The notes below the pieces were generated by a model. It searched no databases and was not told where the DNA came from. It was given only the letters and a program-made list of their open reading frames with translations. Source: Nemertoderma westbladi (taxonomy: Eukaryota; Animalia; Xenacoelomorpha). Taken from it: DNA of 64,000 nucleotides. Where the stretch lies: assembly GCA_032718475.1 (NCBI GenBank), contig JAUCBJ010007430.1, positions 61,880-125,879 of the forward strand, given 5' to 3'. Position 1 is the stretch's first letter. Each line of letters opens with the position of its first letter. Shown piece by piece: positions 10,722-62,186 of the stretch. The translations under genes were made by a program, and so were the position numbers.

Positions 10722-10970
10722 ACCACCGTTAAACCAGTTTACATCGCAATCTACGACTTCGCGGAAGACTTGTGAGCCTACCGAACAAAGGAGACCAGTG
10801 GATACGCAACCGTTTAATCAGTTTACATTGCAATCTACAACCTCAAGGAAGACTTGTGAGCCTACCGAACAACGGAGACCAGTGGATACGCGACCGTTTA
10901 ATCAGTTTACATCGCAATCTACGACTTCGAGGAAGACTTGCGAGCCTACCGAACAACGGAGAACAGTGGA
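10722..10970 (+). repeat. 84-bp in-frame tandem repeat in gag (3 copies; 2 copies in A')
   Basis: Repeated peptide PFNQFTSQSTTSRKTCEPTEQRRPVDT. Confidence 0.9.
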
Positions 10971-32474: not shown

Positions 32475-32486
32475 TTAAAGGATATA
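32475..32486 (+). promoter_or_regulatory. Non-tRNA primer-binding site of B' (TTAAAGGATATA), complementary to LTR 31727-31738
   Basis: Starts at the first base after the LTR; no TGG; 12/12 complementarity to TATATCCTTTAA. Confidence 0.75.
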
Positions 32487-32542
32487 GCTTCTTTATTGCA
32501 GTAAGCAATAAAGTTGAAAATACCGGTCAACCGGTAAACTTG

Positions 32543-37700: not shown

Positions 37701-39677
37701 GGCGAAAGCCAAGCTTCCCAAGGGGAGGATAGCGGGAAAGACACTGAAAGATCTTATTATGTCAATAAAATGCCTAAAGATCAGGTAAGTAAATCCAAGT
37801 CTCGACCCAATGACAGAAGGGAACCGGTACAAAAAACCCTTCCTACGTCTCCTAAAAGAATTCAGGTGAGAAAGCCCGAGGAAAGAACAAGTGTGCACCA
37901 CATAGCACAGGTTAAAGTAAGTAACATCAAGCCGAAATGTGTGCTGTGCGACGGGCCCCACCGTTTAAATGCGTGTGATAAATTCCTGAGGAAATCACTC
38001 GAGGATAGACGTGAAGTCATGTGGGATAAGCGGTTGTGTTATAATTGCCTCAGACGAGGACACCAACGGCGAACCTGTAACTCCGACGCAAGGTGTGCAA
38101 AGTGCGGCGCAAAACATCATATCTTGTTGCACACGGAATTCGAACGAAACAGCCCGAGTCAGGTAAGTGAGTCCGAACTACATGTCCAATTCAGTGATGT
38201 GAACGACACTGATCAATCTGAGATGGAAGGATTCTATACGGACGAGTTCTCCGACCAAAACGAATCCTGTTACCTAATAAACACCACCGCAGTGTATCGA
38301 GTACTCGTGCATGAGGAAGACACAGACAGCGACCTTACCTTAACTACTTCCGATCAACAACCATCTTGGAAAGCGCCAACTTCCAATATAGGGATCCGAG
38401 AATTTCCTGTAGTCCAGTTACGGGTCCACGGACCTCAGAAGAGCTATATAGTGAACGCCCTCCTGGACTCCGGTAGCACAGGAACATTCATCGATAAAGA
38501 ACTAGCCGAAGTCATCTTTGCTGGACAACCCAAGTTCCGAACCAAGCTAAACATGTCAGGGATCATGCAGGTTTGGAATTCTACTGTAGCTGCCGACTAT
38601 TATATAGGTGAGTTGTCCACTCCACAGGATAAACTAGGAGAATACAGTATAAGGTCAGTAAAAATGGTGGCAATAAAGAACTTCGCTACCACCCAAGTGG
38701 AACCTTATAATTGGGACGAAGATGATCATGCCCAACAACTTAACATCCCTAGATTCGACACCGATTATCCTGGAGTACAAATATTAATCGGTCAAAACGC
38801 GCATGAGGCGCTGGAGACATTAGAGAAACGACCTACTCAACCGCAACCACTTCAGACCTATGCGGTAAGAACTAGAGTAGGTTGGTACCTTACTGGACCT
38901 TCCCGTAGAACGCTCAGGGAAAGACTGCTTCAAGATCGCGTCTGCCAGGTGAGTGAATGGGAAGATGATACTAGTGAGGGAGACGACCCAACTGAGGGAA
39001 CACCACACTCCTCAGATAATGACAATCTTAGCTCCAATGTAGATCAATGGAGATATTGCCCCAAGAAGTTTAATCCAACTGACATCGCTTCCAGAGGAGC
39101 AACTCCTCAAGAACTGACAGATACTACAGACCGGTTAGGTGAACCCGACTTCCTGAGTAAGGAGGATGAATGGCCTCCCCATCTTACTCCGACTGAGATT
39201 AGACCAGCCAAGGGAGCGGAGAAAGTTAAACCTAAAACCCGGACGGGTGGAGCGGAGTTATTTGAACCCGGGATAGATCTGTCGGTATTACATATTGCCA
39301 GGGACGACGCCGTGGATCTGGACCTCCCCACCGCGAGTGGATCCTTCATGAAGATCAGAGAGAGCGATTGGAGCCCTGGAACATCAGACGTCTCGCAGGG
39401 ACTCTCACCTCTCCTGCAGAGAGCGACGGACCACTATAGCTCCTGGAATCGGCTTTGTAAGGCCGTCGTGTACCTAGAGCGATGTTTCTATCGTCACTAT
39501 TCCAGGACGAAGAGGAAACCTGGAATTGTATTCGGGATGCAGCGACTCAATCACCCAGTCGGTCGTTTGTGTTTACCGGAAGGGAATGGAGGACTCTCCG
39601 GAAACTGTGGAAGGCAAGATTCTCTTCCCACGACCACCTCCCTAATCCTTCAAACATCTAGGGACTCCATAACGTAA
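34725..39677 (+). CDS. gag: Gag-protease of B' with in-frame fused pol remnants (1650 aa)
   Basis: Open frame; knuckles CVLCDGPHRLNAC, CYNCLRRGHQRRTC, CAKCGAKHHILLH; protease LLDSGS; deletion junctions at ~39024 and ~39512 relative to 51814..59949. Confidence 0.88.
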   Translation: MSDTKQNLSDSILDVTICDSDRGVEPSSRKFSSPPTVRKAIPPVVIKEPRLVQHRRSIIGTRAQVKRDQEAAEQQQPASQELTSQQPDSSSSEDTVELTPERGARMMDEAYSDPLLILPAAVLTRLLIAVEEHQIDWARSQRSTRDSYAGYTSEELKSIVESQWNFPGPGLPFDLSEAAWEDIHRMGVAKETIDPAVWKRSAAGYAQGFFSSIERLKEQLFHQPQGPQEQGLLLYQVRERILRIRLILSAFEEASKRRQDTSLQVAVKTWFQRVNLQVQGTAQWKAQLEERSTHGESTDATFSQVESEATAEKRHKRDAIDIYLSDYQRFLGDDELRRRLEGLSPNSEGTKLVLDAIDVEMRAANQAKFDEQLRLTRVQEEHVKKKRIEDRKTAAAAVAAAEADRKAAEAAAEAKAAAAEAAAEAKAAAAEAKAVAAAEAERKIAVAEAERRAAEETIQLELENIQENQDCINKQLTASNMQMMNRSTPKRQGYTSSEEGDTTDTEGKGNRSRLSRRKRTFHRQKLPDLPPAVRRQLNNTNLGSTEPTDQIIKIERLPTIVDEPEIIRPVLEITPSVIDTPVLPEATSKFPLHSTKLPVPSRTAQETVQVLDPERNIPDLSPVVPRPPATTLATPASAVEWVDERRRGMDLLLGQMQETVLQFKGTVRESRLELQEVQQSIALERDKLVNLQKGISTPPVTMCQPVRSEVSHAQGVEPTRIYTASEVETPIVNPIKGNYRPVDNDIPYRTDHNPRNLYTDNSILNNTMAQESFTRQMARTEARQAVKVGEIVKFNGDEMKWLPFNEYYKDNIQNSVLSNGEKLRFLIECLEGSPKSMALKFIGHPDGLRQVWDTLNIRYGNRTNIARYLYAKLMAPRKFLSSGIIEFSDEIQEICRQLDWLGKSHEYQNSMVVGALASTLPKGGVGTRWDKKVLYMMEQQQRDPTMADLMSFLDGEVKLQLLRQSREKTLENKVSEKPVSRRKVTPVCYTDDGESQASQGEDSGKDTERSYYVNKMPKDQVSKSKSRPNDRREPVQKTLPTSPKRIQVRKPEERTSVHHIAQVKVSNIKPKCVLCDGPHRLNACDKFLRKSLEDRREVMWDKRLCYNCLRRGHQRRTCNSDARCAKCGAKHHILLHTEFERNSPSQVSESELHVQFSDVNDTDQSEMEGFYTDEFSDQNESCYLINTTAVYRVLVHEEDTDSDLTLTTSDQQPSWKAPTSNIGIREFPVVQLRVHGPQKSYIVNALLDSGSTGTFIDKELAEVIFAGQPKFRTKLNMSGIMQVWNSTVAADYYIGELSTPQDKLGEYSIRSVKMVAIKNFATTQVEPYNWDEDDHAQQLNIPRFDTDYPGVQILIGQNAHEALETLEKRPTQPQPLQTYAVRTRVGWYLTGPSRRTLRERLLQDRVCQVSEWEDDTSEGDDPTEGTPHSSDNDNLSSNVDQWRYCPKKFNPTDIASRGATPQELTDTTDRLGEPDFLSKEDEWPPHLTPTEIRPAKGAEKVKPKTRTGGAELFEPGIDLSVLHIARDDAVDLDLPTASGSFMKIRESDWSPGTSDVSQGLSPLLQRATDHYSSWNRLCKAVVYLERCFYRHYSRTKRKPGIVFGMQRLNHPVGRLCLPEGNGGLSGNCGRQDSLPTTTSLILQTSRDSIT

Positions 39678-41334
39678 CAACATATGGAGTGGGTGTGTGA
39701 CTCTATTATTTTATATTATTTTATTATTTTTATATTTCTGTATGTATTACTATGTAATTTTATTATAATCGTTTTCTTTAATTTTATTCAGTAGAATGTT
39801 ATTTTAGCGATTATTTAGTAGATTAGTGCAATATATATTCGCGTTTATTACTTAATTACGTATATATTATATTTAATGCGACGGCAAGAAATAATTCTTT
39901 TTCTCTTTCCTTACTGTCCGTATCATATTATAAATACGTGACTACAGTAAGATGAAATGTCCGTACTTATTAAAGTACAATAAAGCCACTACTATATTTA
40001 AGTATTATTGGTAGGCAGAGTATTAGGAATGCAAAGTTCAGATCCTCGTGTCTCGGCTAAACCAAGCTCTGGGTAGACCTTGGAAACGACTTGCCTCTTC
40101 ACACTGACATTGCTTCGTGCGATATTGCTCTCATACCGTATATTAAATAATACATATAGTAGCGTGATGTCCCTTTAACAGTAGCGTAAAACGCACATAA
40201 ATTTGTTAAACCTTTTGACCATCTGTAATTCTAGTCGATTAAGATATCGCGGCACCCACCGATATACTTGAAAGACAAATTCTAGAATCAGTGGTTAACG
40301 TCCCCAGACAAGTTCTGGAATAAATCGGTGCCCATCTCAAATATTAATTAGTTAATATTTACAAATCAAATAAGTCAAAATCTGTAAAATTCAGATCCTT
40401 CAACAATTCTAGTCAATTAAGATATCGTAGCATTTACCGATATTCTTAAAGAGACAATTTTCTTAGAATTAAGGATCTTGTGTCCCTAGACATGTTCTAG
40501 AATCAAAATATGCCCATTTAATTATCAAATAATAAAATTTCAGGGAATAAATTTAAATTCATGTCTTTTAATGAATTTAATAAATTGCCATTTTACGCAA
40601 TTTATAACATTCCCAAAAATTCCATTAATTAATAGATCAAGGGAGCGGAGATTTATCTTATTATGCATATGAGTGTGCGAAAGTCTCCCAAACATAGTCA
40701 ATAGCCGATAAAATTCATAAAGTCATGTATAAAACAGGACATTGACTATTAAAGAATTACTATTAAATAACATCCCAGATCTGTATGCATTGGAATTACC
40801 CTAATTCTACCGCTAGCTTTGCATAATGTCACCATAGCAACAACCACGCTAGAATTAGAATTGAGTTAAAAGAACAATAGAAAGCTTGTCCCATTGAATA
40901 GCATAGGGAATAAATAGCGCACTACTAGTATCCAAGGATACATAATAATACAGTGACATTCTGGAAGGCATTGACTAACGGACAAATGGCCCGAATGTGT
41001 GTAATTTGTGACAAGTTGTGTGTGTGGTATTTGTGAGTTTATAGGTGAATGTTACTGCTAAGGTGTGTTTACAGTAGCCAGTCGCAATCGTAAAAGTAAC
41101 CTAACTCTCCAAGGAAAACCTGAAGTACATCTAAGCCTTTGGGACGGACAGTCGAGTGACTTGTGCCGGTTGTCGTTGTCGTTGTGCGGCTACGTCGTTG
41201 GCGAAAGTACAGCGGCGACGACACATCGGCGCTGAGGATCTCGTACTGTCCGGGGGTAGATTGGGGTAGGCAGCGACGCCCGCTCGCCTAAATATAAACT
41301 CATTATAATATGGATAAACTCATATATAGCAGAT

Positions 41335-42663
41335 ATGACGGAGTTGATAGAAGATGGTCTTGGTATCGGGGAGCGATATACTCTACTTTTACAAGCGTTT
41401 GTTGATAGCTTAATACGCGGCGACGTTAGTCCAACTGCTGCGGAGGACGATGGTCGTTATATCGAACCGCCAATGTCCCAAGAGCAGCTCGCGCGAGTTG
41501 GACTATAGAAAATTCGCTGCTCGATATACGCAGCGTAATGGTACGTATATGGGCTTCTTAACTACTGATCATCCTATCGATTTACACAATACGGACTATG
41601 TCGACTATATATCCTGCCCAGCGGAGTCGGAACCATAAACTGAAATTCGAATGCGAAAATTCTATTCGAAATCGGCTCGAAAGAAAAGACATTAAAGAAA
41701 CAAATAAACGCGGTAACTCCAACATATATTTGGAATTCTTGATAGAAGCATTGTAACAACAAATAAATATCATTCGCGTTTCCTCTACCAGACGTGCGTC
41801 TTTGGTATTATTACGGTAAATGCCCTAGACCCAGCCAATAAACGGAAAGACATAAACATCCACGGAAACGTTGTGTTAAACACAGTTGTGTTCGTTATAT
41901 TTACTGGAGTTTCGAGCGAAACTTGTTTGACGTATCACCTATGCTCACTCGGCTCTAACGATCCTAGAGTAAACCTACAATCAGAGTCCCGGAATACTCG
42001 GTCAAACCTCCTCATTCCTTAGTTGGACCTCAGACCTGCGATCCTGGTGGTGTCGCGGATCCTCGCGGACGGTATTCACTGTTCAAGATCTAGTGCTACC
42101 CTAACAATTAATCGGTAACACTCCGACAGTGATTTCTAGCTAGCCGCCCATCTTACCTAGCCGGATTATGACGCAGACACCTAATATCACTATCCAACTG
42201 TATGGTCGTCCCGTTTAACGCGATACAACCCTTCATCAAGGTGAAGGAGAGCGTTGTACGAAACGAGTTAAACGCTATTCTATAAAGATCAAAAAAGAAA
42301 CCTGCGTTTGTTCAGATAAACGTAAGTTATAACAGTAAGTCCAATCGATAAACAAATTGGCCTTATCTCAGTTCGATTGGGAAACCTCGAATCTCAAAGA
42401 AGATATCAAGCTTAGAAAACCCTATTCTCTGCGAGAGTTTTGGACGAACGTATCCCATGACAAGCGGAGGAAAATCAGCTCGAGGAGAAGCATATCGAAA
42501 TGGACGAGACACCGACCGTAAACCCAAACCTTCTAATGCAATCATATTGCACCCTTCACCCAGGAGTTATGGCCCTCCTAGTAAAGTGGCTTCCCCCAAA
42601 GAGAAAATGACTCTTGCTAGCTTTAAAAAACTGCGTAAACGCCGTCCGCGCAAGAAAGACTAA
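41335..42663 (+). pseudogene. Degenerate, internally deleted ORF2 of B'
   Basis: Begins MTELIEDGLGIGERY (compare MTELIEDDLGIRERY) and ends KKLRKRRPRKKD; many frameshifts; exonuclease and knuckle region missing. Confidence 0.88.
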
Positions 42664-42741
42664 CTGTTTAGAGTATTTATGTATATTAGAAATTGTGATT
42701 TTGTATATTTTATAGACTTAAATCCCATTTTCTGGGAGCGG

Positions 42742-43928
42742 TGTAAAAGCTTTTGTGGGATAACTGATTCGTTTGCCTTGCTAACCAGTTCCCCCCCAGT
42801 CGCTGAATACTCTAAAAGGGGATCTATAACTCGAATAGCGCAAGCTACCAGCTTATTGGCTGATTTGCTGTACGCAGGTATCTGGGCTCTGTTTAATCGG
42901 CCAACCTGCCTAGGAAGGTTGCGTCATAGCCTTGTTTTTGTATCTCCCAATAGAATTTGAGTTAGCCTTGATTTTGACCTATCACAGAGCTACTGAACTG
43001 AAATTTTCCTATCTCACTGCTCTTTCTCTGTGTTGAACGGGAGCTTCGTGGAATAAGGGTAGTTGGTATCCTCGTATAGAGGGTAGTCACGAGTTTTTCA
43101 AAGCCACGAAAGAACAGCTTTGTAGTGTTTTGTGCTTTCTGCTTTTTAGCTCAACACTAGTAGGTTTAATTATAAGGACATATATCCTTTAACTGGCGGC
43201 TGTGAATATCACACGGCTTTTAATAACTGCTGCTAAAAATTACCTGCTCAATCAATACTGTATACTGCTATTTGTTGTCGGTTATTCATTATATTGGTTG
43301 ATGAATTATTATATTGGAATAACGAGAAATAACCCCGAAAACCCAATATTCTTGATATACCTAAGGTAAGAGAGAAAGGTTACCAATAACGATTGTGACT
43401 TATGTTAAAGTGGTTTGAAGTGAATCTAATGTTATTTGATAGACCCTACATGAGTCAGTCTGTGTTCCTTTTATATGTGACTAAAATCAGTGAAGATTGG
43501 CAGATTAGTGTGCAGTATTGTGCAGCATTGTGTATGAGTGAGTCTGTTAAAGAAGCAATTCCTAAAGAATGCGCCATATATGTGAATTATAATTAAGCCA
43601 TATCGTTGTGAGTAGTTTAAGTCATAACTCTGTTTATATAGATAAAGCGCCACGTCTTAAAGGAACTGTTAATATTCCCGAAGGTGAATAATATTGTCAG
43701 AGATTATATAATACTGTCAGTCGAATAATACATTAGGCTTACATAGCAATAAAATTAAACCGTCGAACCCAATCTCCCGGGAATATCCAGCGGGTGAATG
43801 ATCGCGCACAGATTGGTTTCGACTAGTGTAGTGAATCAAATACTTGTCATAGGCTAAAAAGCGATTTAATATCTAGAAGACATCTTAATTTGGCGGATTA
43901 AACTGCCAAAGGTCTGAAAGCGCGAACA
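42742..43928 (+). repeat. 3' LTR of B'
   Basis: Preceded by PPT-like GGGAGCGG; ends ACA followed by the TSD. Confidence 0.96.
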
Positions 43929-44581: not shown

Positions 44582-45852
44582 TGTACGCGCTTTTGAAGAC
44601 CTTTAGCAGTTTAACCTGCCAAAATTTATATGTCTTTTGGTTTATAAATAGACTTTAGAAGATGACAAATATTTAATACCAATAAACACAACATTAGCAG
44701 AAGCCAGCCTAGTGCGCGTCCATTCACCCGCTGGATATACCCGGGAGACTGGATTCTGAGGGCTTAGATTATTATTGCAGTGTAAGCTTACTGTATTGTA
44801 TTATTCGATTGATCGTTAATAAATTTCTGACTAATATTATTTACTTTCGGGAAAATATTAACAGTTCCTTTAGGACATGGCGCTCTATCTAGGTAAACAG
44901 AGATATGACTTATACTAATCACAACGGCAAGTCGGTAAGGCTTATGATTCACGTATGAGGCGCATTCTTTAGGAAATGCTTAGTTATCAGTCACAATCAT
45001 GCACACTACCGGTAACACACAATACTGCCCACTAATTTGCCGACCGTCAATGATTTTTATCATATATAAAGAGAACAGCAACGGACCAATGTAGTGCTTA
45101 TCAAATAGCATTAAATTCACTACATACACAATAATATAAGTCGCAATCGCTATATATAACCCGTCTCTCTAACCTGTAGTGTATCAAGAAAATTGGGAAA
45201 TTTGGGTTCTTTATAAATGTTCTCCAAATAATATTCAACCAACTAATACAAAATATGACAACAGTAAAACATTAAGACGGTAGGTTAAGATATGATATGA
45301 CAAGTAATGATATGTGATATATGACATAGACTGGACTGATAACAGTTATACGCTCTATAATCTTGAGCCTACTAATGTTTCTTCTAAAGTATGAAAACGA
45401 TTTGATTCTAGAGCCGGTGTTCCTGGCCTAGATACCAACAACACAAAGTATATCAAGAAAAACAGTAAGACTGAACACTCCTAGTATCATCGGCCGAATA
45501 TCTACACGTCGACAGAAAAAATCGCTCTGATTGGCTCAAACCAAACAAAGAACCGTGCGTCCAATGGCTGTTTCCATGCCAGCAACCAGCTGCTAGATGT
45601 CGCAATCTGGATCATCAAGGCCAAGCCGTGTAAAGGTATTTGGTGCATTGCGGGTTTTTTGCCTTACCATGTCCGCCAAAGCAGGTATATAGACGAATGA
45701 CTTTTATGTCCGTTAAAACACCTGTAACGGTACCTTGCGGGCGAGGGAAATATATATACAGTTTAGAGAACCTTTTTAGAGTATTCCAGCGCCTGGGGGG
45801 AAACTGGATTGCGAAGCAAAGGGGCCAGTTATATCCCACAGAAGCTTTTACA
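44582..45852 (-). repeat. 3' LTR of B (1271 bp)
   Basis: Preceded on the minus strand by GGGAGCGG (45853-45860). Confidence 0.95.
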
Positions 45853-45930: not shown

Positions 45931-48900
45931 TTAGTCTTTCTTGCGTGGACGGCGTTTACGCAGTTTTTTAAAGCTAGCCAGAGTCCTTTTCTCTTTGGGG
46001 CGAGCCACTTTACAAGGAGGGCTATAACTCCTGGGTGAAGGGTGCAATATGATTGCATCAGAGGGTGTAGGATTATGGTCGGTGTATCCGCCAGTCGAAG
46101 TACCGGGTTGATTGACATCATCGTCAGGGGAGAGAGGTCTAACGGCTTTGAGAGCTCGTTTCAAGACAGCCGCTCTTACGGGTCCTTTACGAGTGGTCTG
46201 AACGAGGGCCGTGGGTGGACCATAGGCAGTTAGAAACCTCCGGGGTTTAATGGTCCTTTCCAACTCGCGTTCGTGGGCTCGGTATTCATAAGGCCGTCGA
46301 TATACTTCCTGTAACTCGGGGTGTGAGTTAACAAACAAGTCTCCATAGTCCGGATCCTGACGGATATAATTGATTAAGTTATAGGAATGAAGGTCGCTAG
46401 GATTAACACTCCTGAGAAATTTGCGTACGAATTTGGTTGAAATACATTCTCCGACGCGCTTCAGTAGCTCGTAACTTGATATGCGTGATTTCTGTTCAAC
46501 CGAAGCGAATAGATAAGGATGGAACGCATAAACTCCTTCGTAAGCGCGTCCGGGATAATAGCGATGGCGCGAATCACAATGTAAATCAACGTTCGCTTCC
46601 CAAGCTCTGATGTAACGCAGTGTGATCATTTCATCTACGCTTTCCAAATCGTGATTAAAAGGGCAGTCGAAACTAGCATGTCCCTTTAGTTGACAATGGT
46701 GACATTGAGTCATAAATTGAGGGCAAACCGCAAAGATATGCAGGTTATTGAGTCTGCAATATGCGCAATAAATTTCCATAGTCGGTTGTTCTTGGAAATA
46801 GGAACAGCGGACGTTGGTGTCCATGGGCGTATCGTGGTCTCTCGATGCGCATAACCGACAACGTTGCCTAGAAACATAGTTGGCATGTCGATAATCGTAC
46901 GCAGTGAGACACTGTGGACCTTGATACCATTCTATGATGTAATCGTTGTCGCTGTTCCGGGGCGCGATAGGCTGAATCTCTTCAGATTCTAGACATATTG
47001 GTTCGTCTTCCAAGTGCATAGCTGAAGTGGGCGCGTCTGTCTCTTCAGGTGGACCTATTGTCTGAATTTCCACGACAGAATAACCTGTGGGGATTCGAGG
47101 TCTTTGTATAACAGAGGAGTGCAAGTTCGATATACAAATCTCTTGAAAACGGCGAATCCAGCGCTATCCAACTTCTCTGCAGCTGAGTTTCTTAGGCTGA
47201 GCTTGGTCAAAGCGCGGTCTTTAAATTGGCTATCCACGTTGCGGAACGGGGTTAAAAATCGCCGGAAACATTCGAAACGGATGAATTTATTATGTTCATC
47301 TAGCTTAGCGAGTTTGGTCCCAAGTATTAATGGATGGGCGCGTATAGTACGACTGCACACATCGGCTAGCCAACCGGCAAGTGCGGTGTTTTCAAAGATC
47401 GTGTATATAGCTAAGGAGGGACGGAGTGGAACACTCATGAAGCTATACACGGCGCCAGGTGCGGTCAATGGTCCATCAAAGTATAATCGAGAATAATGGT
47501 CTCCGTATACTTGTTGATAGTTAATGGGATTTCCGACTTTGAAATTCCATCCGTATTCCTGAAAGGCAAGATGTCCGATGGAAGTTCGTTGCACCTTTGT
47601 AATGTTGCTAGGCGTATTAGCATACATAGTGCGGAAGAAACCTCGACCTTCTGCCCAGGGAGCAATCAGCTGAGTATCAACGAAAGGGTATGGAATGTTC
47701 TCCATATTCCGAAAGTCGTTTTGGAGATCTCCATAAACAGCTGAGCCGATTTTAAGGATTCTTTCGTTGAACAACATCTCGAGTACGGGCTGGGGTAACA
47801 TCGATCCATCGATGCCCATGGCCGGTTTGCGTTCGGTGTCAATGACGTAACGCTGCGCGAGTTCGAATTGTCCATGTCGGAGATTCTTTTGTGTTTCGGT
47901 GAGAGTTTCAAAAGAATAATCAATCACGTCGGAACACGCTCGAGTAAACACGTGGGTAGAACCAGCTAATCCGCGTATGTGGATCATGCGCGTAGTTCCT
48001 AGTTCTCCGACCGGAACGCTACCTTCATTATCGTAGGTGACAACTCCATACATCTCAATAACATTAAGAGTTTCATTCCACTCCTTGGTGGCATTCTCTA
48101 GGGTCATCCCTACTGGATGCCACAAGGTGGCGCATTGGTTAGCGTCAGGGAGATCACTATACTTCATATGCCAAGTGGTATACGTCTCCACATTTCCATA
48201 TCTTTGTATTTTCTCTTCTTCAAATAATACATCTAGATTCCAATGGACTAATCGAGTTTTAATAAATCCATCGAGATTATAAGGAGGTTCTATATCTTTC
48301 TCGATTCGAGAAATGTTATATGGTTTTCTAAATGAGTTTACCTTTACTAACTGATCCAGATGTTTCTGCAATTGTTCGAGTTCGACAATGTCTAGAGGGT
48401 TTATTAGTGGTAGAAACTTTAAATTATGTGTCGGGTCCTCTGGTTTTACCATATAATATTGAGTCAGATTAACGTAATAAGGGTGGTCTTTAATCCCATA
48501 AAACGAGTTCTGTAAAGGTCTAGCGCGTATGTTGACATCGTGTACCATACGACGGACAAGATCCGCACGATTGTCCGGAGGTTCAACGAGTATACCGTCA
48601 ACACGAGCGGCCTCGATCGGCGGACGCTGTAACATAGGGGCGTCAGCGATAAGATTTTGCGATCCTGTACTGATATCAACCGGTTGAGGTTGTATCGTCG
48701 CGAAGAGCTTGTCCCCGAAATGTGGAATCATCGAGGGATGATGAATGGTTTTAGAGTAGAGGTCCGTCATGAGGATTTGAGCTTCCGGTTGGGCTAAAGC
48801 GGCTTCTTCTCTCTCTTCCAGTTTCGTGTGTTTCTCTTCGAGTAGATTTTCTTCCGCTTGTCTCTGTAAGCGTTCATCTAAAAATTCTTGTAGAGAATAC

Positions 48901-50183
48901 GTGCGTCCAAGCTCGATGTCTTCCTCGAGGTTTTGGATTTCTCTATCGAACTGTGGCAAGGCTAACTCCTTCACCGATTGGACTTGTTGTTGTAATTTAC
49001 GTTTCTCTAAACAATCTTGTGTTCCCTTTCCGATTTTCTGTCGAATGGCGTCTAAAGCGTTTCTTATAACGCTCTCCTCGACTTCCGTGGCGGGTTGCAT
49101 CGGGTTTAATCCTGGACGATTGTAAGGATCAAAGGGCGATATTAGCTGCCCGCGTCCCAATCCGGCTAAGTAGGATGGGCGGATGTCTAACGAACCCACT
49201 ACCGGAGCACCACCGATTAATTGTTCGGGTAACACTAAGTCTTTGAACAGGGAATATAGTTCGGGAGGATCAGTGATACTGTTAGGATCAAGAGTTTGAG
49301 GTCTCACTAGGGAATGAGGAGGCCTGACCGAGTATTCCGGAACTCTGATCATGGGTTTATTCAGTGATCGTTTAAGATGAGCGATCGTGGGTGGTATGTC
49401 GAACAGGTTTCGCTCGAAACTCCCGTAAGTGTAACGCGTAAAACTATGTTTAGCGCAACGTCTCCGCGGATGTTTGTGTCTTTCAGTTTGTTGGTTGGGT
49501 CTAGGGCATTCGTCACAATAATACCAAAGACGTACGTCCTGTAGAGGAAACGCGGGTGAACGTTCTCCAGTTTTGCAATATTCTTCCATTTGTTCAAAAC
49601 TATCCGGGATCACAGGTAGTGGACGATCGGCGGTAAGATACATCATAGTGAAATAGAGCCGTTTGAGTTCTACCACAGGGTCGTGATGTATACCTTGAGG
49701 ATATCGAGTCTCTAAGTTCTGCTGACTAGCGATGTTGAGATAGGTTTCTCTCAAAAATTCTAGGTATTCGTTGAAGTCGATGCGTTTATCCGGTTCTTCA
49801 ACGTTTTCTCTTTCCAGTCTATTACGAATAGAATTTTCGTGATCTATTCTCGGTTTATCGTTACGACTCCGCTGGGTATGATATTTAAATAGAACCATTT
49901 CCCTCTCTGTATCTACATCGTCCGTATCATGTAAATCGATAGGATGGCCGGTCGTTAAGAAGTCCATATACGTACCATTACGATTCATATAGCGAGTGGT
50001 GAATTTTCGATAGTCCAATTCACGCGCAAGTTGCTCTTGGGACATCGGCGGTTCGATATAACGACCATCGTCCTCCGTAATGGTTGGATCGGCTTCACCG
50101 CGTATTAAGCTATCCACAAATGCTTGCAAAGGTAAAGTATATCGCTCCCTAATACCAAGATCATCTTCTATCAACTCCGTCAT
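45931..50183 (-). pseudogene. Full-length ORF2 of B (~1417 aa when repaired): Cys/His motif, coiled coil, DnaQ-like 3'-5' exonuclease, CCHC knuckles, basic tail
   Basis: ORFs 47055..50183 and 45931..47124 are joined by one frameshift near 47140 that is absent from the duplicate at 24581-28515. Confidence 0.82.
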
Positions 50184-51813: not shown

Positions 51814-54800
51814 TCACGTTGGGGAGTCCCTAGATGTTTGAGGAATTAGGGAGGTGGTCGTGGGAAGGGTATCTTGCCTTCCATAGTTTCCAGAGAGTTC
51901 TCTGTCTCTTTCCAGTAAACATAAACGACCAACTGGGCGATTGAGTTGTTGCGTCTCAAAGATTATGCCTGGCTTCTTGAAGTTACGCCGCATGACGACA
52001 AGTTCTACTGAGCGCACTAAACCATCATCCGAGATGTGAGTCTCGATGATACGACCTGTCTGCCACTGTTTACGTGGGAGGTCTGGATCTACAATAAGCA
52101 CCATATCTCCGGCGCTGACGTTTTCTTGCTGCGCAAACCACTTAGTTCGAAGTTGTAGCATGGGCAGATAATGTTTCTCGAAATGGTCAGCGAAACGACG
52201 GGATAGCAACTGCATAAGTTGCCAAGTTCGACGGCAGTATTCGTCTCCGTCGGCAATCTCCGATCGTGGGAGCATGGCTACAGGTTTCTTCAGTAGGAAG
52301 TGCGCGGGTGTTAGCGCTTCCAGGGAATCGGGACTCGATGAGACTGGCATAAGCGGTCTCTCGTTGAGATAGGCAGCGATTTCCTCCATTAATGTCCGCA
52401 AAAGTTCGTCGGTGAGATATGCGCGGCATGGCACTATAAAGTGAAATGCGGTTTTGACAATTCGAATTAATCTCTCCCAACTTCCTCCCCACCAAGGGGC
52501 GTCGGCGGCGTTGAAGGTCCAGCTAGATGCTGTTATCCTTAGCTGGTCGTCCACCTGTCTTTGGTTCCAGTCCTTCACGTAAGCCTGTATTTCGTTGTTG
52601 GCACCAATGAAGTTCGTTCCCTTATCCGATCTCATGGTATTACTCGTCCCGAAGCGAGCGATCTGTCGTCGTAAACTTAAGACGAAGCTGTTGGTAGATA
52701 GATCGTTCACCATATCGAGATGGATGGCTCTACAAGTCATGCACACGAAGATGACACACCATCTCTTGACTATAGTCCTCGCACGATATACTTCAATAGG
52801 GCCAAATAAATCTACACCAGTATTAGTAAAAGGTGGTTCATAGAAGCTTACTCGTTCCCTAGGTAATTCTGCCTCTCGCTGTGTTAAAGGCCTACTGAAT
52901 GCTTTCCTACAGGGTATGCAGTTCCTAAGAACTTGGTTCAGAGCTCTACGGGGTTTATCAAAATAATAGCGAGTTCGAATTTCGCTAAGAATTCGTTCTC
53001 TACCAGCATGATAAAGTTTACTGTGAACATCTACAATCATCTTGATTTGTACTTCAAGATTTCTAATAAGTATGGGGAATTTGGTGTCAAAGGATAAGGG
53101 CGCGTTGGTGAGTCTTCCTCCAACACGTATTAACCCATCTATCATTGTGCTCGAGAATCGATCCCTTAAGCGCATCTGCGGATTTCTCAACAATAGGAAA
53201 TACTTTTCAGAATCCTCATAGCATTGCAGGAGTCTCAGTATCTGCCTATTGGTTTCTTCATGCTCCTGGTGACTAATTTTCTCCTTTAGAAAACGGTCAG
53301 ATGTCTTATATTTGGGTAAATTTTTAATAACATGAACTTGTGCAGATGTCAATGGAGCGGTATCACTAGTGGTCTTCGTCCTGGAGTAGTGATGATGAAA
53401 ACATCGTCTTAAATATGTGACGGCTTTACAGAGCCGATTCCAGGAACTGTAATGATGCATTGCTCTCTGCAGCATGGGTGAGATTCCTTGCGAGACGTCT
53501 GGTATTCCAGATTTCCAATCTTTATCTCTAATTTCCACAACAGACTTATTTGTGTTGAGGGATTGTGGATCCGAAGCATCATTCCCGGAAGTATGTAATA
53601 CAGATAGATCGATAGTCGGTTTAAATAACTTCGATTTACTCGCCCGGGTTTTAGGTTTGACTGTCTCCGCTCCCTTGGCTTGTCTAATCTCCGCCGTAGT
53701 AAGGTGAGGAGGCCATTCATCCTCTTCCTTGCTCAGGAAGTCGGGTCCACCCAACCAATCTGGAGTATCTATCAGTTCCTGTGGAGTTGCTCCCCTGGAG
53801 GCGATATCGGCTGGATTAATCGTACCAGGGCAATGTCTCCATTGTTCTATCTTTGTGCGACTAAGAATAATAGCTACCCTGTTAGTAACAAAAACGCTGA
53901 ACTGACAGACTTCATTGGTTAGATATTCCAACACGAGTAAAGCGTCAGTCCAATAAACCGTTTTCTCCAGTGGATAGTCGATTTGTTCCGTTACGTTCCG
54001 GCCGATGGCTGTAGCGTATAAAGCCGCCTTTAACTCCGCTCGAGGAACCTTTAACTTGTTATTAATCAATGCCTTAGAGGTAACCAAGGCGACTTTGATT
54101 CCATCCGGGGTTTCGACTCGCAGATATGCTACTATACCTATTCCCATGTCGCTGGCGTCTCCAAACACATGGAGTTGATAGGAATACGTAGGAATAACAT
54201 GGCCAAAATATGCACGGGAAATTGTAAAGTTCTCGATGGCAGGTAGAGAATCTTCCCATTTCATCCATTTCTTTAACAATTCCCCCTTAAGCGGATCGTC
54301 CCATGAGTGGTTTTCAAGCCACATTTGTTGTACTAAACTCCGAGCAATCAATATAACTGGGCTTATAAATCCCAATGGGTCGAAATAAGTGCTCAGGATA
54401 CTTAAACAAATCCGTTTGGTCCGAACTGGATTATCTCGCTGTTTTAACTGAAAAAACAGGATGTCTCTTTCAGTGTCCCACTTCAAGCCAAGCGTCTTGG
54501 TTTCAGGAAGATCGTCCTTTATTAAGTCTAGGTCTTTCGCTCCTCGGTCTGCTACCGGTATCGCTTCCAGAAACTCACGGGAGTTGCTGGTGAATTTCGT
54601 CAGTCGAAATCCACCTCTTTTCAAACACTCTACCATTCCTTTTGCGACATCTATGGCTTCTTCTACTGATGGAAGGGACCTTAAATTGTCGTCCATGTAT
54701 ATATTCCGTTTGATGTTGTCTATCACCTCTTTTGAGAAGGAGTCTCGGTTGTCATTCGCAGTGGTTCGCACCACGGAGCAGGCGTTGGAAGGGCTTGATA

Positions 54801-57800
54801 TGATTCCAAAAGCCTGGATGGTCATCCAGTACTCTACCGGTTTCTGATTGAGGTCTCCTTCCGGCCACCACAGAAATCTCAGGCTGTCTCTATCTCTATC
54901 CAGCGCCTTGACTTGTAAGAACATTCCTTCTATATCGGAGGCGAACGCGATGGAATATTGTCTTAATCTTAAAAGTATTCCCAACAAAGATTGGAGTAAG
55001 TTGGGTCCTGGTAACAACTCGGAATTGAGGGATTGGCCCATATATAGGGCGGAGCCATCGAATACGACTCGGACTTCATGGGGTTTACCGGGTTTGGGAA
55101 CGTAATGATGTGTTAAGTAATACGTTCTCTCAGTCACTGGTGTTCCTTCCGGTACTCGCTCCGCGTATCCCTTTGTTATAAATTTCTTCAGCTGAGTTTG
55201 GTACATTTCTTTAGCTGAAGTATTAGCCGTAAGGCGTCGATGTAATTGAGCGATTCTTTTCTCTGCCAAGGGTCTGTTATTTATAAATCTAGGTTCTCGT
55301 TTTCGAAATGGTAGGCCGATTTCATATCTACCTTGTTCCTTTAAAAAACGTGTAGTTGTTTCCTGGATTTGCTTGGCTCTTTCTTCTTCTATCGATAGGG
55401 CCTTATCATATGAATTGGGCTCTACCAGTTCTTGGGTAAAGAATCGTACGGCTAGTTCGTCCCGAGTTCTAGCGTTGCAGCGCTCTATCTCATCATTTAG
55501 TTCGTCACTGTAAGCGATGGGTTCCGATGGGTGAATCAGTTGACATAGGTTTACCTGATTTTTCCAAGTTTGGTTTTCTGTAAGTAGGTCGATGGTGTTC
55601 TCTTGATCGAAGAGTTGGTAGATGTCGTCATTATCTGAAGAGTATGGTGTTTCCTCAGTTAGTTCATCCACCTCACTGCTCTCCTCGCTCCAATCACTCA
55701 CCTGGTATACTCGTTCTTGTGGCCTTCTCTCTTCGAGAGTCCTGCGGGAAGGGCCAGTAAAGTACCAACCTACTCTAGTTCTTACCGCATAGGTTTGCAG
55801 TGGCTGCGGTTGAGCAGGCCGTTTCTCTAATGTTTCGAGCGCCTCGTGCGCGTTTTGGCCGATGAGTATTTGCACTCCAGGATAATCTGTCTGGAATCGA
55901 GGTATCTTAAGATGTTGGATGCTCTCATCCTCGTCCCAATTATAAAGGTCTGCTTGAGTAGTAGCGAAGTTCTTTATAGCCACCATTTTTACCGACCTTA
56001 TACCTTGTGCTCCTAACTTATCCTGGGGGGTGGACAACACACCTACATAGTAATCTGCCGTTAGGGTAGATTTCCAAACCTGCATAATTCCTGACATATT
56101 CAATTTAGTCCGGAATTTGGGTTGTCCAGCAAAGATATCTTCGGCTAATTCTTGATCGATGAATGTTCCTGTGCTGCCGGAGTCAAGGAGTGCGTTCACT
56201 ATGTAACTGTGGTTAGGACCGTGAACTCTTACCTGCACTACAGGAAATTCTCTGATTCCTACGTTGGAAGTTGGAGCTTTCCAAGATGGTTGTTTGGCAA
56301 AAGTAGTTGGGGGAAACTCATTGTTGGTGTCCTTTTCATAAGTAAGTGCTCGATACACTGCGGTATTGATTAGATAACAGGATTCGTTGGCGTCGGAGAA
56401 TTCGTCAGTATAGAATCCTTCCATCTCAGACTCCTGATCAGTGTCATTTACATCACTGAATTGGACATGTAGTTCGGGCTCACTTACCTGACTCTGTTTG
56501 TCTCGTTCGAACTCACTGTGTAACAAGATGTGATGTTTCGCGCCACACTTTGCACACTTTATGTCGGAGTAACAGGTTCGCCGTTGGTGTCCTGGTCTGA
56601 GGCAATTATAGCATAACCGCTTATCCCACACGACTGCACGTCTGTCTACAAGGGATTTCTTTAGAAATTCAGCACACGCACTCAAACGGTGGGTCCCGTC
56701 GCACAGCGCACAGTTAGGTTTTATGTTACTCACTTTACCTTGGGTAACTTGATGCACTCTCGTTTTTTCTTCGGGTTTTCTTCGGTGCATTCTGTTAGGA
56801 GACTGAGGAGGGGTCTTGGCAACCTGTTCTCTCCTATCGTTGTTTCGAGCCTTGTATTTACTTACGTCTTTTGAGGTTTTGTCAACGTAGTAAGATCGAT
56901 CAGTGTCTTTCCCGCTGTCCTCTTCTTGAGAAGCTTGGCTTTCGCCGTCGTCAGTGTAACACACCGGTGTTACTCTTCTCCTAGAAGCGGGTTTCTCACT
57001 TACCTTATTTTCCGATGTTTTCTCTCTGGACTGCTTGATGAGTTGTAGTTTTACTTCACCATCTAAGAAGGACATGAGATCGGTCATGGTAGGGCTTCGT
57101 CGTTGTTGTTCATTCATGTACAACACTTTCTTGTCCCAACGTGTACATACTCCACCCTTGGGTAAAGTAGAGACTACTGCTCCAATAACCATGGAACTCT
57201 GATATTCATGAGACTTACCTAACCAGTCCAATTGTCTACAGATTTCCTGAATTTCATCGGAAAACTCTATAATCCCGCTACTAAGGAAGTGTCGGGGGGC
57301 TACTAATTTTGCATACAAATACTTAGCTATGTTATCCTTGTTACCATACCTGATGTTTAATGTATCCCATACTTGTCTTAATCCTTCTGGATGTCCAATA
57401 AACTTTAACGCCATTAACCTGGGAGGTCCTTCCAAGCACTTGATGAGGAACCTAAGTTTCTCTCCGTTAGATAGTACAGAGTTTTGTATGCTATCTTTGT
57501 AATATTCGTTGAAAGGTAACCATTTCATCTCATCTCCATTGAATTTGACGATCTCTCCCACTTTGACCGCTTGGCGGGCTTCTGTTCTAGCCATCTGACG
57601 CGTAAAGCTTTCTTGGGCCATCGTGTTATTTAATATCGAATTATCGGTATATAAATTTCTCGGATCATTGTCAGGTCTATAGGGGATATCATTAATAACA
57701 GGTCTATAATCACCCTTAATAGGGTTTGCTATAGGAGTTTCTACTTCACTAGCAGTATAGATGCGTGTAGGCTCCACACCTTGCGCATGTAATACTTCAG

Positions 57801-59949
57801 ACCTAACAGGTTGACACAATTTTACAGGGGGTATTGGTATCCCTTTTTGGATATTGACTAATTTGTCGCGTTCTAGCGCGATACTTTGCTGCACTTCTTG
57901 CAATTCGGCCCTACCTTCCCTTACTGTTCCCTTAAGTTGGTAGACAGTCTCCTGCATCTGTCCGAGCAGGAGATTCATCCCCCGCCGTCCCTCCTCTACC
58001 CACTCGACCGCCGAAGCGGGAGTCGCCAACATTGTAGCGGGCTGACGTGGGACGACGGGAGACAAATCTTTGATTTCTCTCTCAGCTTCCAGGACAGGGA
58101 TATTCTCATGGACTGTTCTACCGGGCACAGGCAGTGTAGTACTGTGTAAAGGGAATTTAGAGTTAAGCTCTGGAAGTACAGGGGTCTCTAACACAGGAGT
58201 GACTTTGGGAACGACAGGCCTAATTATTTCAGGCTCATCAACTATAGTAGGGAGTCTTTTGACCTTAATAATTTGGTCTGTAGGTTCTATACTACTCAAG
58301 TCTGTGCTAGCTAGTTGTCTTCTAACAGCTGGGGGCAAATCAGGCAATTTGTGACGGTAAGATGTTTTTCTACGCCTGCTTAGACGAGATCTATTTCCTC
58401 CGCCTTCAGGATCGGTGGTTTCGCTTTCCTCCGATGACGTATATCCCTGGCGTTTGGGAGTAGATTTTCTCATCATCTGCATGTGACTAGCAGTTAACTG
58501 TTTATTTATGTTGTCTTGCGTCTCTTGCAGATTTTCCAACTCCAGTTGGGTAGTCTCCTCAGAGGCTCTCCGTTCTGCTTCTGCCACTGCCTTTGCTGCT
58601 GCCACAGTCGCTTTTCTTTCTGCTTCGGCTTCTGCCGCCGCTGCCTTTCTTTCTGCTTCTGCTTCTGCCGCCGCTGTTACTCTTTCTGCTTCTGCTTCTG
58701 CCGCCGCTGTTACTGCAGCTGCCTTTCTTTCTGCTTCCACTTCGGCCATTGCCGCTGTTACTGCAGCTGCCTTTCGGTCCTCTATCCTTTTTTTCTTTAC
58801 TAGTTCTTCTTGGACTCTAGTGAGGCGGAGTTTTTCATCAAACTCAGCTTGGTTAGCAGCTAACATTTCAGCATCGATTGAGTCTAACACACGCTGGGTT
58901 CCTTCACTATTAGGGGAAAGTCCAGACAGCCGTCTCCTCAACTCTTCGTCTCCTAGGAATCGCTGATAGTCGGACAGATATATGTCGATGGCGTCTCTCG
59001 TTCGTGGTCTCTCTGCGGTCTCTTCGCCTTCCACTTGAGAAAGGGTGGCATCGGTTGGTTCTTCATAGGTTAGTCTCTCAGACAGCTGGGATTTCCACTG
59101 GTCCGTTTCTTGTACTTTGAGACCTACCCGCTGGAACCAAGTTTTGACAGCAACTTGCAGCGACGTGTCCTGTCTTCTTTTGGAAGTTTCCTCAAAGGCT
59201 GATAGGATTAGTCTAATGCGTAGGGTTCTTTCGCGTACTTGATATAGCAGCTCTTCCTGCTCTTGAGGTCCTTGGGGTTGTCGAAACAGTTGTTCTTCCA
59301 ATCGCTCCAAGGAGCCGAAGAATCCCTGCACATATCCTGCTGCCGACCTCTTCCAAACAGCTGGATCCATTGTATCTTTAGTCACTCCCATCCTGTATAT
59401 ATCCTCCCAAGTGGCCTCGGACAAATCTAGCGGGAGTCCGGGTCCGGGAAAGTTCCATTGTGACTCGACAATAGACATCAATTCTTCCCTGGCGTATCCC
59501 GCATAATTGTCTTGGGTCGCTCGCTTATTTCTCGCCCAATCGGCTTGATGTTCCTCCACCGCAATCAATATAGTAGTTAGCACTGCGGCAGGAAGGGTGA
59601 GAAGGGGGTCCGAGTAGGCTTTAGCCGCCATCTGCAATCCGCGTTCGGGGGTCAGCTCGACAGTATCCGAATTACTGGAGCTATCGGATCGCTGGGAACA
59701 AGTTTCTTGACTAGGCTGTTGCTGCGGTGGGACAGCTGCTTCCTGGTTCCGTTTGACTTGGGCCCGAGTGCCGATGATAGACCTATGGTGTTGGATTAGC
59801 TTAGGGTCTGATACTACTACTGGAGGGATGACCTTTCTTTCAGTAGGAGGTGAGCTGAACTCCTTTCTTAATCGCTCCACACTCCTATCTGTGTCACAGA
59901 TGGTTGTATCGATTAGACTGTCTGATAGGTTTTGCTGGGTGTCAGACAT
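51814..59949 (-). CDS. gag-pol: Intact Bel/Pao gag-pol polyprotein (2711 aa)
   Basis: Single ORF: three Gag knuckles, LLDSGS, SDIEGMFLQV, IYMDD, VFGDAS, VPRAELKAA, NPADIASRG, HAGRE...CIPC, GVDLFGP, SDKGTNF, WERLIR. Confidence 0.97.
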   Translation of the reverse strand: MSDTQQNLSDSLIDTTICDTDRSVERLRKEFSSPPTERKVIPPVVVSDPKLIQHHRSIIGTRAQVKRNQEAAVPPQQQPSQETCSQRSDSSSNSDTVELTPERGLQMAAKAYSDPLLTLPAAVLTTILIAVEEHQADWARNKRATQDNYAGYAREELMSIVESQWNFPGPGLPLDLSEATWEDIYRMGVTKDTMDPAVWKRSAAGYVQGFFGSLERLEEQLFRQPQGPQEQEELLYQVRERTLRIRLILSAFEETSKRRQDTSLQVAVKTWFQRVGLKVQETDQWKSQLSERLTYEEPTDATLSQVEGEETAERPRTRDAIDIYLSDYQRFLGDEELRRRLSGLSPNSEGTQRVLDSIDAEMLAANQAEFDEKLRLTRVQEELVKKKRIEDRKAAAVTAAMAEVEAERKAAAVTAAAEAEAERVTAAAEAEAERKAAAAEAEAERKATVAAAKAVAEAERRASEETTQLELENLQETQDNINKQLTASHMQMMRKSTPKRQGYTSSEESETTDPEGGGNRSRLSRRRKTSYRHKLPDLPPAVRRQLASTDLSSIEPTDQIIKVKRLPTIVDEPEIIRPVVPKVTPVLETPVLPELNSKFPLHSTTLPVPGRTVHENIPVLEAEREIKDLSPVVPRQPATMLATPASAVEWVEEGRRGMNLLLGQMQETVYQLKGTVREGRAELQEVQQSIALERDKLVNIQKGIPIPPVKLCQPVRSEVLHAQGVEPTRIYTASEVETPIANPIKGDYRPVINDIPYRPDNDPRNLYTDNSILNNTMAQESFTRQMARTEARQAVKVGEIVKFNGDEMKWLPFNEYYKDSIQNSVLSNGEKLRFLIKCLEGPPRLMALKFIGHPEGLRQVWDTLNIRYGNKDNIAKYLYAKLVAPRHFLSSGIIEFSDEIQEICRQLDWLGKSHEYQSSMVIGAVVSTLPKGGVCTRWDKKVLYMNEQQRRSPTMTDLMSFLDGEVKLQLIKQSREKTSENKVSEKPASRRRVTPVCYTDDGESQASQEEDSGKDTDRSYYVDKTSKDVSKYKARNNDRREQVAKTPPQSPNRMHRRKPEEKTRVHQVTQGKVSNIKPNCALCDGTHRLSACAEFLKKSLVDRRAVVWDKRLCYNCLRPGHQRRTCYSDIKCAKCGAKHHILLHSEFERDKQSQVSEPELHVQFSDVNDTDQESEMEGFYTDEFSDANESCYLINTAVYRALTYEKDTNNEFPPTTFAKQPSWKAPTSNVGIREFPVVQVRVHGPNHSYIVNALLDSGSTGTFIDQELAEDIFAGQPKFRTKLNMSGIMQVWKSTLTADYYVGVLSTPQDKLGAQGIRSVKMVAIKNFATTQADLYNWDEDESIQHLKIPRFQTDYPGVQILIGQNAHEALETLEKRPAQPQPLQTYAVRTRVGWYFTGPSRRTLEERRPQERVYQVSDWSEESSEVDELTEETPYSSDNDDIYQLFDQENTIDLLTENQTWKNQVNLCQLIHPSEPIAYSDELNDEIERCNARTRDELAVRFFTQELVEPNSYDKALSIEEERAKQIQETTTRFLKEQGRYEIGLPFRKREPRFINNRPLAEKRIAQLHRRLTANTSAKEMYQTQLKKFITKGYAERVPEGTPVTERTYYLTHHYVPKPGKPHEVRVVFDGSALYMGQSLNSELLPGPNLLQSLLGILLRLRQYSIAFASDIEGMFLQVKALDRDRDSLRFLWWPEGDLNQKPVEYWMTIQAFGIISSPSNACSVVRTTANDNRDSFSKEVIDNIKRNIYMDDNLRSLPSVEEAIDVAKGMVECLKRGGFRLTKFTSNSREFLEAIPVADRGAKDLDLIKDDLPETKTLGLKWDTERDILFFQLKQRDNPVRTKRICLSILSTYFDPLGFISPVILIARSLVQQMWLENHSWDDPLKGELLKKWMKWEDSLPAIENFTISRAYFGHVIPTYSYQLHVFGDASDMGIGIVAYLRVETPDGIKVALVTSKALINNKLKVPRAELKAALYATAIGRNVTEQIDYPLEKTVYWTDALLVLEYLTNEVCQFSVFVTNRVAIILSRTKIEQWRHCPGTINPADIASRGATPQELIDTPDWLGGPDFLSKEEDEWPPHLTTAEIRQAKGAETVKPKTRASKSKLFKPTIDLSVLHTSGNDASDPQSLNTNKSVVEIRDKDWKSGIPDVSQGISPMLQRAMHHYSSWNRLCKAVTYLRRCFHHHYSRTKTTSDTAPLTSAQVHVIKNLPKYKTSDRFLKEKISHQEHEETNRQILRLLQCYEDSEKYFLLLRNPQMRLRDRFSSTMIDGLIRVGGRLTNAPLSFDTKFPILIRNLEVQIKMIVDVHSKLYHAGRERILSEIRTRYYFDKPRRALNQVLRNCIPCRKAFSRPLTQREAELPRERVSFYEPPFTNTGVDLFGPIEVYRARTIVKRWCVIFVCMTCRAIHLDMVNDLSTNSFVLSLRRQIARFGTSNTMRSDKGTNFIGANNEIQAYVKDWNQRQVDDQLRITASSWTFNAADAPWWGGSWERLIRIVKTAFHFIVPCRAYLTDELLRTLMEEIAAYLNERPLMPVSSSPDSLEALTPAHFLLKKPVAMLPRSEIADGDEYCRRTWQLMQLLSRRFADHFEKHYLPMLQLRTKWFAQQENVSAGDMVLIVDPDLPRKQWQTGRIIETHISDDGLVRSVELVVMRRNFKKPGIIFETQQLNRPVGRLCLLERDRELSGNYGRQDTLPTTTSLIPQTSRDSPT

Positions 59950-62175: not shown

Positions 62176-62186
62176 ATAACTGTTAT
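62176..62186 (-). promoter_or_regulatory. Non-tRNA primer-binding site of B (ATAACAGTTAT), complementary to LTR site 62940-62950
   Basis: Abuts the LTR end; 11/11 complementarity to ATAACTGTTAT on the element sense strand. Confidence 0.72.

Follow-up and report, generated by a model that had tools for sequence, protein, structure and literature searches.

What do two large retrotransposons of Nemertoderma westbladi encode in the place of env? The window analysed here, 64,000 nucleotides of contig JAUCBJ010007430.1 to which all coordinates refer, is a nest of large long terminal repeat (LTR) retrotransposons that sit inside each other's LTRs. Two of these elements (here denoted A and B) each carry a second open reading frame (ORF2) between pol and the 3' LTR, where env would be. 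A preliminary description of the sequence proposed that ORF2 specifies a 3'-5' exonuclease with zinc knuckles, and our analysis confirmed that this predicted exonuclease cargo is real and conserved. What the protein does can be said less firmly. We tentatively favour, at somewhat less than an even chance, a conserved accessory gene whose predicted product is an RNA-binding, DEDDy-fold 3'-5' exonuclease with knuckles that would trim the RNA of the element. ORF2 and its blocks are located as follows.

45931..50183, minus strand: ORF2 of B, about 1,417 codons over two frames, with a frameshift near 47,140-47,160
24581..28515, minus strand: another copy of B ORF2, uninterrupted over the exonuclease, the knuckles and the tail, with the first ~108 codons missing
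18449..21623, plus strand: ORF2 of A, interrupted by a stop codon in frame (18827-18829) and broken again near 21005-21023
49446..49661, minus strand: N-terminal block common to A and B, with RLYFTMMYL (49635-49661) and CxxC...RCxxH (49446-49517), a possible zinc site
48021..48035, minus strand: ExoI-like YDNEG (D718, E720), aligned with bacterial GFDTE
47724-47753, minus strand: ExoII-like KIGSAVYGDL (D819), with the FVDT strand at 47673-47684
47538-47576, minus strand: GHL and WNFK
47388..47405, minus strand: ExoIII-like Y927-x3-E931, with E in place of the usual D
about 46663-46860, minus strand: three CCHC-type zinc knuckles
46579-46602, minus strand: WEANVDLH, then an Arg/Lys-rich tail ending at 45934

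The analysis of B was done on the open copy at 24581-28515, and the broken copies were left unrepaired. The two ORF2s had been described as very divergent yet collinear, with a list of shared blocks, and every block was found in place: counterparts of all the B blocks lie in A between 18743 and 21620, and the proteins align collinearly with 165 of 610 residues identical (27%, E=2e-51), the N-terminal block aligning separately. WEANVDLH of the 45931-50183 copy reads WEANADLH in the other B copy. Searches of Pfam, NCBIfam and PDB with the N-terminal RLYxTMxYL/CxxC...RCxxH block gave nothing at E below 0.8. As described, three knuckles are present in both A and B, but not all are canonical in spacing: those of B read CX2CX4HX9C, CX2CX5HX4C and CX2CX4HX4C, while A has two canonical knuckles and one CX2CX5HX4C. 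The expected lack of a transmembrane stretch also held, as no 19-residue window over all segments exceeded a hydropathy of 1.38, a result of hydropathy only and not of a dedicated signal-peptide predictor. With this maximum and no env family match, an env reading of ORF2 was dropped.

Just upstream of the ORF2 start we noticed a TATAAA word ~28 nucleotides before a TCA(G/T) word, kept in B (~50190-50225, minus strand) and in the related element C (~41290-41330, plus strand). The pair may serve ORF2 as an internal promoter or a splice acceptor.

A HMMER scan of 1.84 billion proteins returned one homologue from outside the window, P0001 (648 amino acids, a singleton; E=4.5e-6), which derives from a contig of 9,449 nucleotides and is known here from the protein alone. 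P0001 carries D-V-E, KVGSxIxxD and W-x2-P-L-x3-Q-x2-Y-x3-E along with three knuckles and a basic tail, in the domain order of the A and B ORF2s. The three proteins are 22-30% identical in pairs, and all keep D-x-E, D and Y-x3-E. Matches of the knuckles to zf-CCHC and Air2 are weak; those of P0001 match retroviral nucleocapsid (NC) at E=1e-4. Word-index protein searches gave no relative (proteins of 736-2344, 332-1059 and 314-1134 residues), and locus searches confirmed 0 of 355 candidates in metagenome contigs and 0 of 192 in viral contigs. The ExoII pattern, searched as DNA, hit 25 metagenome loci, with no relative beyond the motif itself, and no viral locus.

Comparison with known nucleases indicated that the ORF2 domain very probably adopts a DEDDy-type fold (DnaQ/RNase H-like, as in EXD2, WRN and RNase D), as judged from profiles and a structural model. 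An ExoIII pattern picked out 120 bacterial DEDDy loci, of which 78 gave usable domains, and a profile of A, B and P0001 matched these 78 domains in a profile-profile alignment (hhalign) with a probability of 95.5% and E=1.6e-8; the reversed profile gave 0.26% and the best of 60 column shuffles 1.58%. When the bacterial profile was run against all window frames of at least 60 codons, the top four were the two B frames, P0001 and A. The ExoII block alone reached 96.0% (E=4.3e-9). The language-model neighbours of B and P0001 in Atlas belong to PF01612, at 0.91 for B (161 shared features, below the tool's guide of 170) and 0.94 for P0001 (177). In NCBIfam, B matched RNase D (E=0.0045) and ExoI of A matched DNA polymerase III epsilon (E=0.066), and the sole PDB sequence match of the profile was EXD2 (E=0.79). 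The clusters nearest in Atlas (0.91-0.95) consist of unnamed eukaryotic proteins of ~213 residues; the few that have a record are mostly from Basidiomycota.

The structure prediction called for in the preliminary description succeeded in part. The protein of B, folded by AlphaFold with three alignment rows, had a predicted local distance difference test score (pLDDT) of 33 and no Foldseek match at E<=0.001. A second model covered residues 1-301 of P0001; its alignment comprised A, B and 40 of the 75 bacterial rows, which were cut before ExoIII. This model (pLDDT 61; core 80-93, C-terminal part under 60) matches DnaQ-like folds, namely EXD2, Egalitarian, RNase D, Nibbler, EXD1 and WRN (Foldseek E=4.7e-6; Z 10-12, up to 12.2; root-mean-square deviation 3-6). 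Structural alignments with WRN (29..248 against 50..231) and E. coli RNase D (30..256 against 1..178) run through the Y229/E233 helix. As the bacterial rows end before ExoIII, the alignment through this predicted Y-x3-E helix is the less circular point. An ungapped helix would put E233 on what we take to be D216 of WRN and D155 of RNase D, and mouse WRN would be two residues off by the same helix count. In the alignment of 43 rows the D and E of ExoI are invariant, and a strand is predicted at P0001 58-65. The resemblance to DEDDy exonucleases of the WRN/EXD/RNase D group that had been proposed was thus borne out by the profile match, the Atlas neighbours, weak HMM matches and the alignment-assisted model. 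By sequence, ExoII is firm, and the close Foldseek ranks single out no nearest cellular subfamily. Compared with cellular PF01612 domains (EXD2, WRN, RNase D/Rrp6, Nibbler/Mut-7, EXD1 and Egalitarian), ORF2 shares the motif order, the ExoII block and the predicted fold; it differs in its insertions, its final E and its fused knuckles. The insertions bring the first-to-third acid distance of B to 101 residues, against a bacterial median of 59, and the third-to-fourth distance to 112 against 69.

We then consider the putative active site. A canonical ExoIII ends in D, with Y four residues before it (PMC3985635). A, B and P0001 all read D-E-D-E with the tyrosine kept, and the Y and E of Y-x3-E are invariant in 3 of 3, so that the E noted at the last acidic position of A and B extends to the outside homologue. 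Since the Y-x3-D of DEDDy exonucleases is Y-x3-E in all three, we class the domain as a DEDDy-fold variant and not as a canonical DEDDy site; the ExoIII register is likely, short of proof. In A the putative site comprises D161, E163, D251, Y356 and E360 (18830 frame), and the five residues are identical across both B copies and A. The last E, where PMC3985635 gives D as typical, and an N in A for the conserved strand-5 D both speak against a working nuclease. They would fit a catalytically weak or dead DEDDy fold that serves as an RNA-binding adaptor, comparable to Egalitarian and EXD1, and carries element RNA to a site of transport or assembly. The top Foldseek matches include Egalitarian, also in a complex with I-factor RNA, and the long N-terminal region without a family match could recruit partners. 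Against such an adaptor, the ranks within the fold group are close and pick no subfamily, and proteins 22-30% identical have all retained D-x-E, D, Y and a final carboxylate, in keeping with a functioning metal site. We consider the adaptor unlikely, though a serious contender.

To follow how ORF2 has been maintained, we compared the copies. Elsewhere, A and B are 44% identical over reverse transcriptase-RNase H (RT-RH), 42% over integrase (IN) and 29% over a gag stretch. Because the divergence of ORF2 (27%) resembles that of gag (29%), ORF2 looks inherited with the element from an ancestor of A and B, a view drawn from similar divergence and not from a tree, and the long retention that had been suggested is in keeping with it. 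Between B and C, the ratio of nonsynonymous to synonymous substitution rates (dN/dS) is 0.27 over 376 codons of ORF2, in its N-terminal part, and 0.19 over 1,624 codons of ORF1, so the proposed dN/dS comparison across copies gave a purifying value. The two B copies differ at 24 positions, 13 of them synonymous (p=0.03 with a transition-only null, 0.0006 with another null); they share one local duplication (22585-28515 and 43929-49864, 99.4%) and hence are not independent insertions. In a small selected sample of 40 of about 4,280 differences among contig records of one run, 13 fell in ORF2, 8 of them synonymous, and 19 in ORF1, 11 of them synonymous. ORF2 is under purifying selection.

Purifying selection and the absence of any sign of rapid evolution bear on the view that ORF2 is a counter-defence nuclease, which trims or destroys host piRNAs or siRNAs, or double-stranded RNA of the element; both tell against it. 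In rotifer LTR elements, moreover, a comparable DEDDy ORF3 has no clear link to copy number and is itself covered by small RNAs, according to PMC5408684, which also names Mut-7. The fold relatives Nibbler and EXD1 act in small-RNA pathways, and the family is abundant (92,752 contig records of one run on B) and young (C LTRs 99.7% identical), as a counter-defence function would have it. We regard it as rather unlikely. The present data do not discriminate between element RNA and host RNA as the substrate.

Several further points, besides this one and the failed fold of B, weigh against the RNA-trimming exonuclease. ORF2 has no Pfam nuclease match, the domain of B included. Taken alone, ExoI (1.7%) and ExoIII (0.3-0.7%) fall in the expected register but within the range of the shuffles, and automatic alignments often favour another register (Y-G-D/E, ~30 residues upstream). 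The core match of the model is partly circular, because the 40 bacterial DEDDy rows were chosen for similarity. The successful model is that of P0001 and not of the window's own protein, and its ExoIII has a pLDDT of about 48-54. In addition, the B-versus-C dN/dS is limited to the N-terminal part, because C has lost the nuclease. On another reading, for which the failed fold of B also speaks, the likeness to DEDDy enzymes would be confined to the ExoII block, the one block significant alone, and the rest of the domain would be something else. We hold this to be most improbable: three motifs stand in the right order and register in three divergent proteins, W-x2-P-L-x3-Q-x2-Y-x3-E of P0001 is near the bacterial ExoIII pattern, and the weak ExoI match of A and the two Atlas results are independent.

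The favoured activity, trimming of element RNA, can be set out in steps. The knuckles and basic tail would hold single-stranded RNA, as the knuckles of NC and Air2 do, and the site would bind two metals despite the change from D to E. The enzyme would then digest unpaired 3' ends and stop at a duplex, in the manner of RNase D-type enzymes. The element's own RNA would probably be bound in this way and its 3' ends trimmed during replication. Alternatively, the protein might act on DNA, by RT proofreading or trimming of cDNA ends, as do WRN or the exonuclease domains of polymerases, which are among the structural matches. The DEDDy domain of Dada elements is a precedent, as it was proposed to process DNA ends (PMC3706591); Dada resembles A and B as a mobile element with a DEDDy exonuclease, whereas it is a DNA transposon with the domain inside the transposase and all four DEDD residues kept. 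ORF2 is a separate frame with no fusion to RT, its CCHC knuckles point to RNA, and the many variant copies give no hint of unusual fidelity, so that a DNA substrate appears very unlikely. The division of likelihood among these five mechanisms rests on anatomy and analogy. The nuclease domain could be assayed directly, since its reading frame is intact in one of the natural B copies.

Enzymatic third ORFs of LTR retrotransposons have been documented mainly in bdelloid rotifers, where Juno and Vesta are Ty3/gypsy-type elements. The literature check recommended at the outset lowered the claim of novelty, as a DEDDy ORF3 replacing env has already been published for rotifer LTR elements. Juno and Vesta, as well as Athena/Terminon, carry a DEDDy ORF3 with a motif reported as DEED (Rodriguez et al. 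2017, PMC5408684). The ORF of Juno and Vesta resembles ORF2 of A and B in being RNase D-like, lying downstream of pol in the place of env and having no membrane segment; its acidic motif is also altered, and the roles proposed are 3'-end processing or silencing, with activity predicted only. These elements differ from A and B in that they are not Bel/Pao, their motif is DEED compared with D-E-D-E here, and no triple knuckle is described for them. The present case extends the predicted DEDDy cargo to Bel/Pao-type elements, which have retained it across a deep split and in which it is combined with a putative RNA-binding module and has an atypical D-E-D-E site. This points to more than one recruitment of RNA-trimming nucleases by retroelements.

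A Bel/Pao exonuclease ORF was not reported in the literature searched, which had few older subscription papers and no Repbase or Dfam, and the word exonuclease is absent from the main text of two Bel/Pao surveys (PMC3118150 and PMC554778) and of PMC9094657. A report of an RNase D-like domain in nematode Cer elements, mentioned in the preliminary description, could not be verified. Cluster F.25 in PMC3985635 consists of uncharacterised Caenorhabditis PF01612 exonucleases and may lie behind that mention. Cer7-12 and Atlas of nematodes have YVDN in RT, in contrast to the YVDD and YMDD of A and B (PMC554778 and PMC9094657).

The elements that carry ORF2, and their relative C, were delimited as follows.

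44582-63451, minus strand: element B, 18,870 bp, with TG...CA LTRs 95.6% identical to each other
62187..63451, minus strand: 5' LTR of B, TG...CA
44582..45852, minus strand: 3' LTR of B, with a purine tract just before it at 45853-45870
51814..59955, minus strand: ORF1 of B, open, 2,713 codons, Bel/Pao-type gag-pol with YMDD in RT
6218 to about 23233, plus strand: element A
8911..17788, plus strand: ORF1 of A, interrupted Bel/Pao gag-pol with YVDD in RT
31288..43928, plus strand: element C, sister of B, with LTRs 99.7% identical, a 5-bp target duplication and an internal deletion

C retains only a remnant of ORF2, the exonuclease part being gone. The Bel/Pao signature families PF03564, PF05380 and PF18701 score above the Pfam cut-off in ORF1 of both A and B, and PF17921 does so in B. 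Motif order gives the Bel/Pao domain order of protease (PR)-RT-RH-IN in both. On these Pol domains only, A and B are Bel/Pao-type LTR retrotransposons. B and C have TG...CA LTRs and a purine tract; the 5-bp target duplication is seen at C, and no target duplication at B. Belpaoviridae are 4.2-10 kb long, with an optional env and an 18-nucleotide tRNA-Arg/Gly primer site (PMC8742986). The present elements share with them the Pol domains and their order, the LTRs, the purine tract and, at C, the 5-bp target duplication, while B departs from the profile in its 18.9 kb, its nuclease ORF and its lack of a tRNA-type site (PMC8742986).

We found no TGG (tRNA-type) site after the 5' LTR of B or C, so that the tRNA-Arg/Gly primer trait of Bel/Pao is missing from both. 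In its place, each has a short site complementary to its own LTR.

62176..62186, minus strand: primer-site position of B, 11 nucleotides directly after the 5' LTR
62940..62950, minus strand: candidate self-primer segment in the LTR of B, pairing with 62176-62186
32475-32486, plus strand: primer site of C, 12 nucleotides, pairing with 31727-31738 of its own LTR

The complement is exact and the offset 0, and the LTR segments lie at homologous alignment columns, 505 in B and 504 in C. The segments of B and C differ at 4 of 11 positions, all 4 compensated, and neither primer site pairs with the LTR of the other element. By chance, such a match arose in 131 and 53 of 20,000 simulated-LTR trials, and 9 of 16,324 and 8 of 10,256 internal 11-mers had one. 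In both elements the primer site is followed by a conserved 9-bp hairpin. Self-priming has been defined by at least 10 nucleotides of complementarity between the LTR and a site 0-5 nucleotides after the 5' LTR (PMC6317226). B and C both fall within this definition, a Tf1-like signature in Bel/Pao-type elements from which priming is predicted, and their self-complementary primer site departs from the tRNA priming given for Bel/Pao. Like B, Tf1 and sushi have a primer site of 11 nucleotides, complementary to their own LTR, immediately downstream of the 5' LTR; the Tf1 type is known from Ty3/gypsy chromoviruses and some plant copia elements, and RNase H makes its primer without an extra nuclease (PMC7175516 and PMC6317226). 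No report of Bel/Pao self-priming was found in the same literature.

This site is a specific candidate substrate for the predicted nuclease, and in B and C the self-primer RNA would be the most specific one. In the fullest form of the proposal, B and C self-prime and ORF2 matures the primer: the knuckles would grip the folded leader, and the D-E-D-E nuclease would trim the unpaired 3' flap to the 11-nucleotide duplex. If true, a Bel/Pao lineage would start reverse transcription without a tRNA, by means of a nuclease captured from its host, though we consider this doubtful and distinctly unlikely. Self-priming itself is opposed by four observations. The LTR segment of B is nearly palindromic; the primer duplex occurs in the minimum-energy leader fold of C and not in that of B; TATA-like words lie only ~10 nucleotides upstream, hence the LTR segment may lie ahead of the start of transcription; and the sequence near the LTR of A, the end of which is undefined, gave no self-primer, whether contiguous, G-U-tolerant or splice-joined. 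One candidate self-primer of A at 7304 and one at 7226 were rejected because they lie far from any LTR end.

Examination of the LTR of A showed that it starts with TATA instead of TG (at 22415 and 6218), directly after a purine tract nearly identical to that of B, and its 3' end could not be fixed. By eye, both LTRs of A (~22580-22670 and the matching part of 6218-6986) contain a tRNA-like segment with A-box-like and B-box-like motifs and a T run downstream; ARAGORN called no tRNA anywhere in the window, and there was no Rfam match at 6000-9000. In the duplicated copy, C sits inserted in this tRNA-like segment. A tandem duplication of ~8.7 kb (19822-28515 against 28529-31287 plus 43929-49864) covers the 3' parts of A and B, and C was inserted later, into its second unit. 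Positions 1-5119 form an inverted partial copy of A (90-96% to 6218-13364), head-to-head over a 27-bp tandem array at ~5000-6200. Repeat expansions occur in coding or leader regions at ~14750-15850, 58570-58770, 10725-10976, 32832-33423 and 61244-61827. In A, PD(I/V/M)(S/L) repeats separate RH from IN and gag contains 84-nucleotide repeats; in B and C, gag has Ala/Glu repeats and the leader has repeats of 288 nucleotides.

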